UHGV virus genome: UHGV-0090445
DNA: 40,035 nt
Direction: 5' to 3' (one strand)
Origin: a virus
Part shown: piece by piece, positions 1-40,035 of the stretch
Layout of the letters: every line of letters starts with the position of its first letter
How positions within the stretch are numbered: position 1 is the stretch's first letter
Program-made: the position numbers and the translations under genes
The notes under the pieces: model-generated
What the model saw: the letters and a program-made list of their open reading frames with translations, nothing else
What the model was told of the DNA's origin: nothing
Database searches by the model: none

Positions 1-49
1 TGACGGGTAAAAAGTGGATAAAATAATTTTACCCACCGGATTTTTACCC

Positions 50-1207
50 ATGCTCACCGTTAAGCAGATTGAAGCAGCAAAGCCGAAAGAAAAACCATAC
101 CGCCTTCTCGATGGTAATGGCCTGTACCTTTATGTCCCTGTGTCAGGGAAAAAGGTATGGCAGCTTCGCTACAAGATTGACGGTAAGGAGAAAATCCTTA
201 CCGTCGGAAAATATCCGCTTATGACTTTACAGGAGGCAAGGGATAAAGCATGGACCGCGAGGAAAGACATCTCGGTTGGCATCGATCCGGTAAAAGCGAA
301 AAAGGCTTCGTCTAACAACAATTCCTTTAGTGCGATTTACAAGGAATGGTACGAGCACAAGAAGCAAGTATGGTCAGTAGGCTATGCAACTGAACTTGCC
401 AAAATGTTTGATGACGACATTTTACCCATCATCGGCGGCCTTGAGATTCAGGATATTGAGCCGATGCAACTGCTGGAAGTAATCCGCAGATTTGAAGATC
501 GCGGTGCAATGGAACGAGCCAACAAAGCACGCAGAAGATGCGGCGAGGTTTTCCGTTACGCTATTGTCACCGGAAGGGCTAAATATAACCCGGCACCTGA
601 TCTTGCTGACGCCATGAAGGGATACCGCAAGAAGAACTTCCCGTTTCTTCCTGCAGACCAGATCCCGGCATTCAACAAAGCACTGGCAACATTTTCAGGA
701 AGTATCGTATCGCTCATTGCGACCAAAGTTTTACGCTACACAGCCCTAAGAACGAAAGAGCTTCGTTCCATGCAATGGAAGAACGTCGATTTTGAAAACA
801 GGATTATCACTATCGACGCCAGTGTGATGAAGGGACGCAAGATTCATGTGGTCCCGATGTCGGACCAGGTGGTTGAACTTCTCACTACGTTAAGCTCCAT
901 CACCAAACCAGTATCAGAGTTTGTTTTTGCCGGGCGTAACGATAAGAAGAAGCCAATCTGCGAGAACGCGGTGCTACTTGTGATCAAACAAATCGGCTAT
1001 GAAGGTCTGGAAAGCGGTCACGGATTCAGGCATGAATTCAGCACGATTATGAACGAGCACGAATGGCCTGCTGACGCTATTGAAGTGCAACTGGCACATG
1101 CCAACGGCGGATCTGTGCGTGGAATTTACAACCATGCTCAGTATCTAGATAAGCGCAGAGAAATGATGCAGTGGTGGGCGGACTGGCTTGATGGGAAGGT
1201 GGTGTAA
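50..1207 (+). CDS. int: Tyrosine integrase, P4/CP4-57-like family
   Basis: ORF 14..1207 (GTG at 14; first ATG at 50 giving MLTVKQIEAAKPK...). N-terminal arm-binding-like region typical of P4-type integrases; C-terminal catalytic region with HGFRHEF...RGIYNHAQY (His/Arg/Tyr motif). Start choice between 14 and 50 is uncertain. Confidence 0.9.
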   Translation: MLTVKQIEAAKPKEKPYRLLDGNGLYLYVPVSGKKVWQLRYKIDGKEKILTVGKYPLMTLQEARDKAWTARKDISVGIDPVKAKKASSNNNSFSAIYKEWYEHKKQVWSVGYATELAKMFDDDILPIIGGLEIQDIEPMQLLEVIRRFEDRGAMERANKARRRCGEVFRYAIVTGRAKYNPAPDLADAMKGYRKKNFPFLPADQIPAFNKALATFSGSIVSLIATKVLRYTALRTKELRSMQWKNVDFENRIITIDASVMKGRKIHVVPMSDQVVELLTTLSSITKPVSEFVFAGRNDKKKPICENAVLLVIKQIGYEGLESGHGFRHEFSTIMNEHEWPADAIEVQLAHANGGSVRGIYNHAQYLDKRREMMQWWADWLDGKVV

Positions 1208-39490: not shown

Positions 39491-39517
39491 TCCTCGCACT
39501 CGCGGGGATTTCTTTTA
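39491..39517 (+). terminator. Intrinsic terminator
   Basis: CCTCGC-ACTC-GCGGGG followed by ATTTCTTTTAT. Confidence 0.4.
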
Positions 39518-39559
39518 TCTGAACTCGCTACGGCGGGTTTTGTTTTATGGAGATGATAA

Positions 39560-39727
39560 ATGCACTTCCGAGTCACAGGTGAATGGAATGGAGAGCCATT
39601 CAACAGAGTTATCGAAGCAGAGGACATCAATGACTGCTATAACCACTGGATGATATGGGCGCAGATAGCAAATGCAGACGTAACCAATATTCGAATTGAA
39701 GAACTGAAAGAACACCAATCCGCCTGA
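39560..39727 (+). CDS. Small hypothetical protein (55 aa)
   Basis: SD GGAG 7 nt upstream of ATG 39560; stop lies inside a terminator hairpin. Confidence 0.35.
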   Translation: MHFRVTGEWNGEPFNRVIEAEDINDCYNHWMIWAQIANADVTNIRIEELKEHQSA

Positions 39728-39740
39728 TGGCGGTTTTTTA
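39720..39740 (+). terminator. Intrinsic terminator upstream of xis
   Basis: CCGCC-TGAT-GGCGG followed by TTTTTTATT. Confidence 0.5.
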
Positions 39741-39784
39741 TTGCCTGATTTGCAGGTTCGATTCCCTATTCGGAGATAGCACTC

Positions 39785-39985
39785 ATGCAACACGAACTAC
39801 AACCTGATTCACTGGTTGATTTGAAATTCATCATGGCTGATACTGGCTTTGGTAAAACCTTCATCTATGACCGGATTAAGTCCGGCGACCTGCCAAAAGC
39901 CAAAGTTATCCACGGGCGAGCAAGATGGTTATATCGTGACCATTGTGAATTCAAAAATAAGCTCTTAAGCCGCGCCAATGGGTAA
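39785..39985 (+). CDS. xis: AlpA-family excisionase / integrase regulator
   Basis: 66 aa; LVDLKFIMADTGFGKTFIYDRIKSGDLPKAKVIHGRARWLYRDHCEF is typical of AlpA/Xis-type winged-helix proteins encoded just upstream of P4-like integrases. Confidence 0.8.
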   Translation: MQHELQPDSLVDLKFIMADTGFGKTFIYDRIKSGDLPKAKVIHGRARWLYRDHCEFKNKLLSRANG

Positions 39986-40035
39986 AATAGCGGGTAAAAT
40001 ATTTCTCACATCTAAAAAACACCATTCCAATCAAT

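Follow-up and report, generated by a model that had tools for sequence, protein, structure and literature searches.

Octamer repeats beside intS and torI in a P22-like phage genome as very probable IntS arm-type sites of the KplE1/HK620/Sf6 argW module

Which protein is served by a cluster of octamer repeats that lies beside the integrase gene at one end of a phage sequence and beside the excisionase gene at the other, and do the two ends belong together? The window, a stretch of 40,035 nucleotides of one strand of UHGV-0090445, raises both questions, with GGGTAAAA-type repeats in its outermost parts (Table 1). The initial annotation read the cluster as arm-type or AlpA-binding sites controlling int and as a sign that the window ends are contiguous. 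Its repeat coordinates, and the ATG of int, were all correct when the letters of the window were read again.

Table 1. Features at the two ends of the window, with the basis for each
Feature	Position	Strand	Basis or remark
GGGTAAAA, very probable IntS arm-type site P'1, P' arm (attL side), invariant in 12 species-level relatives	5..12	+	identical to K-12 KplE1 attL
-10 hexamer TAAAAA of PintS	8..13	+	PMC2951348 gives the -10 as TAaAAa; within the first repeat
GGATAAAA, very probable second direct P'-arm copy (own numbering)	16..23	+	11 bp from the first copy
TTTTACCC, very probable inverted third P'-arm copy, in the intS 5' leader	27..34	-	invariant in 12 relatives
TTTTACCC, very probable inverted fourth P'-arm copy, abutting the int ATG	42..49	-	invariant in 12 relatives
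intS, tyrosine integrase, N-terminal arm-DNA-binding domain at residues 2-86	50..1207	+	Pfam
torI/hkaC, winged-helix recombination directionality factor (Xis)	39785..39985	+	identity to TorI
GGGTAAAA, very probable first P-arm copy (attR side)	39980..39987	+	identical to K-12 attR
GGGTAAAA, very probable second P-arm copy	39992..39999	+	12 bp from the first; identity to K-12 attR, HK620 annotation
A-tract plus AATCAA, putative P-arm IHF site, truncated where the window stops	40014..40035	+	letters

The genome is P22-like, of the HK620/Sf6/CUS-3 type, with its genes in prophage order, and its recombination module is of the IntS/TorI type, with the argW tRNA gene as target. From 1 to 1300, on the int side, the window matches HK620, Sf6, CUS-3, N7, Kapi1 and other P22-like coliphages at 96-97.5%, and the xis side matches the same group of phages. 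Over at least its first 190 nt the window is identical to K-12 KplE1 attL/intS, and over at least its last 151 nt to K-12 attR/torI; the same int-side arm is present in 1897 of 5426 complete E. coli genomes (about a third). The integrase, 99% identical to E. coli IntS, matches the Pfam families Arm-DNA-bind_3 (PF13356, residues 2-86, E=2.2e-25), Phage_int_M (PF22022) and Phage_integrase (PF00589, 1.7e-39). The excisionase is identical to K-12 TorI in 66 of 66 residues and matches PDB entry 1z4h, 'Tor inhibition protein', over its full length (E=6.6e-43). RefSeq names the two genes 'prophage integrase IntS' and 'response regulator inhibitor TorI'. The label AlpA-type, which had been given to xis, is not upheld by Pfam for this protein: Phage_AlpA (PF05930) scores 12.7 bits against a gathering threshold of 21 (E=0.12), and HTH_17 scores 16.9 against a threshold of 27. 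As TorI it is still a winged-helix recombination directionality factor (RDF).

Counts set the cluster apart from background. Exact GGGTAAAA occurs 10 times on the two strands of the window against 0.83 expected, a number reached in none of 100 shuffles, and half of these copies are packed into some 105 nt at the ends of the window. The looser GGRTAAAA occurs 12 times against 2.31 expected, with six occurrences in the same 105 nt or so. A chance aggregation of an A-rich octamer could draw on the five other exact copies scattered elsewhere in the window, one of which is coincidental; against the shuffles, the five exact copies packed into the ends and the conservation across genera described below, its probability is next to nil. 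The coincidental copy is TTTTACCC at 420..427 inside int, which corresponds to GGGTAAAA on the minus strand and is an attP repeat according to the HK620 record. It was rejected because it encodes a conserved I-L-P whose synonymous positions vary freely in every relative examined, near-identical E. coli included. The HK620 GenBank record (2001) also has attP repeats at the window equivalents of 4..25, 25..50 and 39979..40001, with the core placed between them.

The six GGGTAAAA-type repeats are very probably IntS arm-type sites of the KplE1/HK620/Sf6 argW module. IntS binding to arm repeats has been reported for KplE1, in a sequence identical to that of the window (PMC2951348), and the copies seen here coincide with the IntS sites mapped in KplE1 attL and attR, which upholds the arm-type half of the initial proposal. 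The resemblance to the attP of KplE1 (CPS-53), HK620, Sf6 and CUS-3 extends to arms identical to those of K-12, an identical TorI, an IntS 99% identical, and the same -10 box, ATG and repeat layout. Two differences stand beside it: the 150 bp at the centre, with the core, five TorI sites and the -35 box, are not in the window, and KplE1 is a 10-kb remnant whereas the module here sits in a full P22-like genome. Binding, promoter, start site and repression come from experiments on KplE1 and are carried over to the window by identity and comparison; the number of P and P' sites, and their names beyond P'1, are a reading of the sequence and are to be taken as provisional. The first P-arm copy overlaps the stop codon of torI (TAA, 39983..39985).

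The P' repeats also lie within a promoter. In KplE1, P'1 overlaps the -10 box of the intS promoter (PintS), the -35 box is TTGACA, and all P' IntS arm-type sites share TAAA, according to the study of KplE1 attL and of the control of PintS by IntS and TorI (Panis et al. 2010 PLoS Genet, PMC2951348). K-12 and HK620 read TTGACA-18 nt-TAAAAA, and the -35 box falls outside the window. By primer extension, intS transcription begins 28-31 nt before the ATG (PMC2951348). In window coordinates this falls at about 19..22, within the second repeat, and more exactly at 19/20 or 21/22 according to which ATG coordinate is used; the 30-nt intS leader takes in the remaining two P' repeats. A PintS-gfp fusion is repressed about 5-fold by IntS (6368 vs 1270 units), and this repression is not relieved in KplE1 mutants of single P' sites (PMC2951348). 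The control of int that had been claimed for the repeats is thus borne out to the extent that they match the KplE1 promoter sites at which IntS represses intS. A simple sigma-70 scanner proposed a different promoter, ATGACG-16-AATAAT, which was rejected in favour of the primer-extension data; the scanner missed TTGACA/TAAAAA because it requires a T at position 6 of the -10.

A rival reading gives the motifs no protein-docking role and takes them for ordinary parts of int, either an A/T-rich -10 box and UTR or codons of an Int extended from GTG 14. One copy does supply the -10 box, two lie in the leader, and the ORF from GTG 14 is open. However, the 8-mer also has two copies past torI, in a place without an int promoter, and in the second group of integrases described below both arms switch together to another repeat. 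The initial annotation had allowed for an int start at GTG 14, with the motifs then merely coding, and this start is excluded: GTG 14 is upstream of the mapped transcription start, 10 of 12 aligned relatives have a 1-nt deletion between its position and the ATG, most of the relatives carry an in-frame TAA there, and K-12 IntS is annotated from the ATG equivalent to position 50. The motifs are therefore noncoding, and a role limited to promoter or coding sequence is extremely unlikely.

Comparison with int upstream regions of related phages and prophages finds the repeats at homologous junctions. Sixty-one IntS-related loci were taken from species-representative genomes. The closest 26, all more than 55% identical, have tRNA-Arg(CCT) upstream in 24 cases, usually ending about 160 nt before the ATG; locus L012 begins too near int to include the tRNA, and tRNA-Arg(CCT) was not found at L018. 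Group A consists of loci with an Int 67-99% identical, from Citrobacter, Dryocola, Pantoea, Edwardsiella, Rouxiella, Erwinia, Serratia, Tatumella and others. Twelve group A relatives (11 species-representative loci and Klebsiella phage Chronis), which all have tRNA-Arg(CCT) or the attP core alongside except the contig-truncated L012, share the full P' layout TTGACA-18 nt-GGGTAAAAA-G[GA][GA]TAAA-TTTACCC-TTTACCC-ATG. Order, orientation and spacing are kept in all 12 and the repeats are invariant or nearly so, with G[GA][GA]TAAA retained at the position of the second P' copy; free divergence is seen in the 8 nt that follow the -35 box and in the central segment of attL. The layout varies in the five most divergent group A loci (Mixta, Pantoea latae, Tatumella saanichensis and two Xenorhabdus), two of which have only three copies. 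On the P arm, the first copy is kept in Chronis, Midgardsormr38 and EhrS_49 and is replaced by GGGCATAA in g341c and phiEt88, and the second copy behaves likewise. As a whole the repeat layout is conserved across Enterobacterales.

More distant integrases retain this layout with a different repeat. Group B comprises seven genomes with an Int 58-72% identical (L017, L025-L028, L032 and L059) and the phages g341c and phiEt88, and was read upstream of position 701 in the genomic loci, at 540..805 in g341c (L068) and at 405..703 in phiEt88 (L124). Its P' arm carries GGGCAT(A)/ATGCCC, as does the P arm wherever attP is available. The equivalent of 42..49 is ATGCCC(A)C throughout the group; that of 27..34 is ATGCCC in phiEt88 and is weak or unrecognisable in g341c and several other group B loci. 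The integrase of phiEt88 is informative, as it is about 80% identical to that of the window from residue 91 to the end, whereas its residues 1-90 are 54% identical to the window and 67% to g341c. The phiEt88 arms are GGGCAT. A group B N-terminal domain and GGGCAT arms are thus combined with a group A-like body, and from the sequences compared the repeat type appears to follow the N-terminal arm-binding domain of Int and neither its catalytic body nor Xis. Tested as a covariation, GGGTAAA goes with group A N-terminal domains and GGGCAT with those of group B. The corresponding covariation with the RDF is not seen in g341c and phiEt88, which have GGGCAT arms in common even though their Xis proteins are only 46% identical and their RDF-type motifs differ; the motifs (GATGTAAC/GCGTTAC) and the Xis of phiEt88 are distinct from those of both the window and g341c.

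Because the repeat type follows the arm-binding domain, the sites are better understood as arm-type than as AlpA-binding. Operators through which TorI, or an AlpA-type Xis-like protein, controls int transcription would suit the position of the repeats between xis and int on a circular map, the 11-12 bp spacing of the direct copies, which resembles the phasing of RDF sites, and the fact that TorI does repress intS in KplE1. That repression acts via I4 and I5, sites of the GTTCG type beside the -35 box (PMC2951348), and these lie in the 150 bp that the window does not include. The mapped TorI motifs are GTTCG, GATCG and GTCCG (PMC2951348), none of which matches the repeats (G[GA][GA]TAAA), and the published site map implies that TorI leaves the GGGTAAAA copies unprotected. 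With g341c and phiEt88 sharing one arm repeat despite unlike Xis proteins and RDF-type motifs, and with TorI itself below the Pfam AlpA threshold, the AlpA-binding half of the initial proposal is very unlikely.

As IntS arm-type sites, the repeats may contribute to both recombination and regulation. Two direct copies on the P arm after torI, and four copies on the P' arm before intS, two of them direct and two inverted, would be docked by the N-terminal domain of IntS, with its C-terminal domains holding the core CTGCAGGGGACACCAT. Arms and core, together with IHF and, for excision, TorI, would form the intasome for integration at argW and excision from it. The P' arm would double as intS promoter and leader, making the P' copies the intS operator in the prophage. 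Because this arm carries the promoter, bound IntS would repress its own gene by about 5-fold and could thereby hold IntS within the narrow range in which excision is efficient; in vitro, KplE1 excision is efficient in a narrow range of IntS concentrations only (PMC2951348). For this window, intasome assembly and the operator role are predictions.

The contiguity of the window ends does not survive the comparison. In all relatives examined (HK620, Sf6, N7, Kapi1 and others), 150 bp separate the match to window 40035 from the match to window 1. This segment contains an inverted core-type repeat, CCCCTGC/GCAGGGG, the 16-nt core CTGCAGGGGACACCAT (the argW 3' end), and five GTTCG/GTCCG/GATCG motifs (TorI sites) plus the TTGACA -35 box; K-12 attL and attR carry the same halves of it. 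The core between the arms is absent from the window, and in relatives it lies 23 nt past window 40035 and 111 nt before window 1. A direct join of 40035 to 1 was sought in IMG/VR contigs and none was found: the 56-nt P arm continues with CCCCTGC or a close variant at 55 of 55 loci. The intact core CTGCAGGGGACACCA follows 23 nt after the P arm at 48 of these, and the remaining seven have a variant or contig-truncated core. The 55 loci include four attP junctions and at least 41 attR junctions.

The missing core reflects where the window was cut and not the module itself. With the P' arm and int first and torI and the P arm last, the window has the order of a prophage, and so it was most likely taken from one, with its boundaries 111 nt inside attL and 23 nt inside attR. 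Its two ends are then most likely the arms of one attP that stood about 40 kb apart in the source as attL and attR. If so, argW, the core and then 111 nt reading TTTATCAGTTCG...TTGACAGCCGCACTCCA should directly precede window 1, and CCCCTGCTGCTTCAAGTAGATGT plus CTGCAGGGGACACCAT should directly follow 40035. A true join of 40035 to 1 would mean that 150 bp of attP are deleted and that the phage should fail to integrate; a real deletion of this kind is unlikely. The last letters of the window (40014..40035) resemble WATCAANNNNTTR after an A-tract and continue as tccccTGc in relatives; judged by this sequence, they are probably the IHF site of the P arm.

Two observations concern the same junction. 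In most IMG/VR attR proviruses (L069-L123) the core is followed by GATACCCTTCAAAC..., as against TCCTTGTGTTTATCC in the K-12 flank, which suggests another host flank or a second tandem element at argW. Separately, the ATG at 39978 opens a small hkaB-like ORF (39978..40035, plus strand), 46 aa long in HK620, that spans the P-arm repeats and, in relatives, the attP core. Integration would split this ORF, and it is probably not a real gene.

The sites, the protein that binds them, the overlapping promoter and the autoregulation are already known from KplE1 and HK620 (2001 to 2010). The IntS arm-type sites of the KplE1-type attP and an autoregulated PintS are reportedly also treated by Panis et al. 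in 2007 (JBC) and 2010 (Virology), and a later review-type text describes the att organisation of only a few systems, KplE1 included, as 'fully characterised'. For the window itself the value is one of annotation: it carries neither the attP core nor the TorI sites nor the PintS -35 box, and int starts at the ATG at position 50. Two arm-site types that track the N-terminal domain of Int are a modest addition to the known system. That argW integrases have at least two such types set by a swappable N-terminal module of ~90 residues, with phiEt88 (Erwinia) as a natural chimera, has about an even chance of being right; if true and undescribed, it would provide a ready pair for reading out or re-engineering the arm specificity of a heterobivalent integrase.

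Comparable arrangements exist elsewhere. Phage lambda (arm sites P1, P2 and P'1-P'3) likewise has a heterobivalent tyrosine integrase whose N-terminal domain occupies both arms, assisted by IHF and Xis, but the sequence, number and orientation of its repeats differ, and its int is expressed from PI and PL. The lambda arms do not overlap the int promoter, whereas here the P' arm is int promoter and leader. In satellite phage P4, int is repressed by its own product, bound near the int transcription start, and the RDF Vis also lowers Int (Piazzolla et al., in PMC2951348). Vis is proposed to act on the mRNA, whereas TorI works on the DNA, at the -35 box; P4 also has another tRNA target and other repeats.

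The region upstream of torI holds several further elements. A tRNA scan of the window returned zero genes, and an Rfam scan of 39500..40035 gave nothing near threshold. Just upstream of the torI ATG, TTGCAGGTTCGATTCC at 39750..39766 equals the argW T-arm/T-loop segment that precedes the attP core; it may be left over from a tRNA, or serve as a core-type Int site or as an operator. In the HK620 record, this stretch is named as a cII-activated pI promoter. The 12-mer GGTTCGATTCCC occurs once in the window and also about 20 nt upstream of xis in phiEt88; Midgardsormr38 has two tandem copies about 20 nt upstream of the xis start, and the 11-nt core of this motif, GTTCGATTCCC, is found at about the same distance upstream of xis in g341c. 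The motif is absent from EhrS_49 and Chronis. Finally, between the ORF at 39560..39727 and the torI promoter region, the sequence at 39720..39739 forms a hairpin, CCGCC-TGAT-GGCGG, followed by TTTTTT, and looks like an intrinsic terminator.
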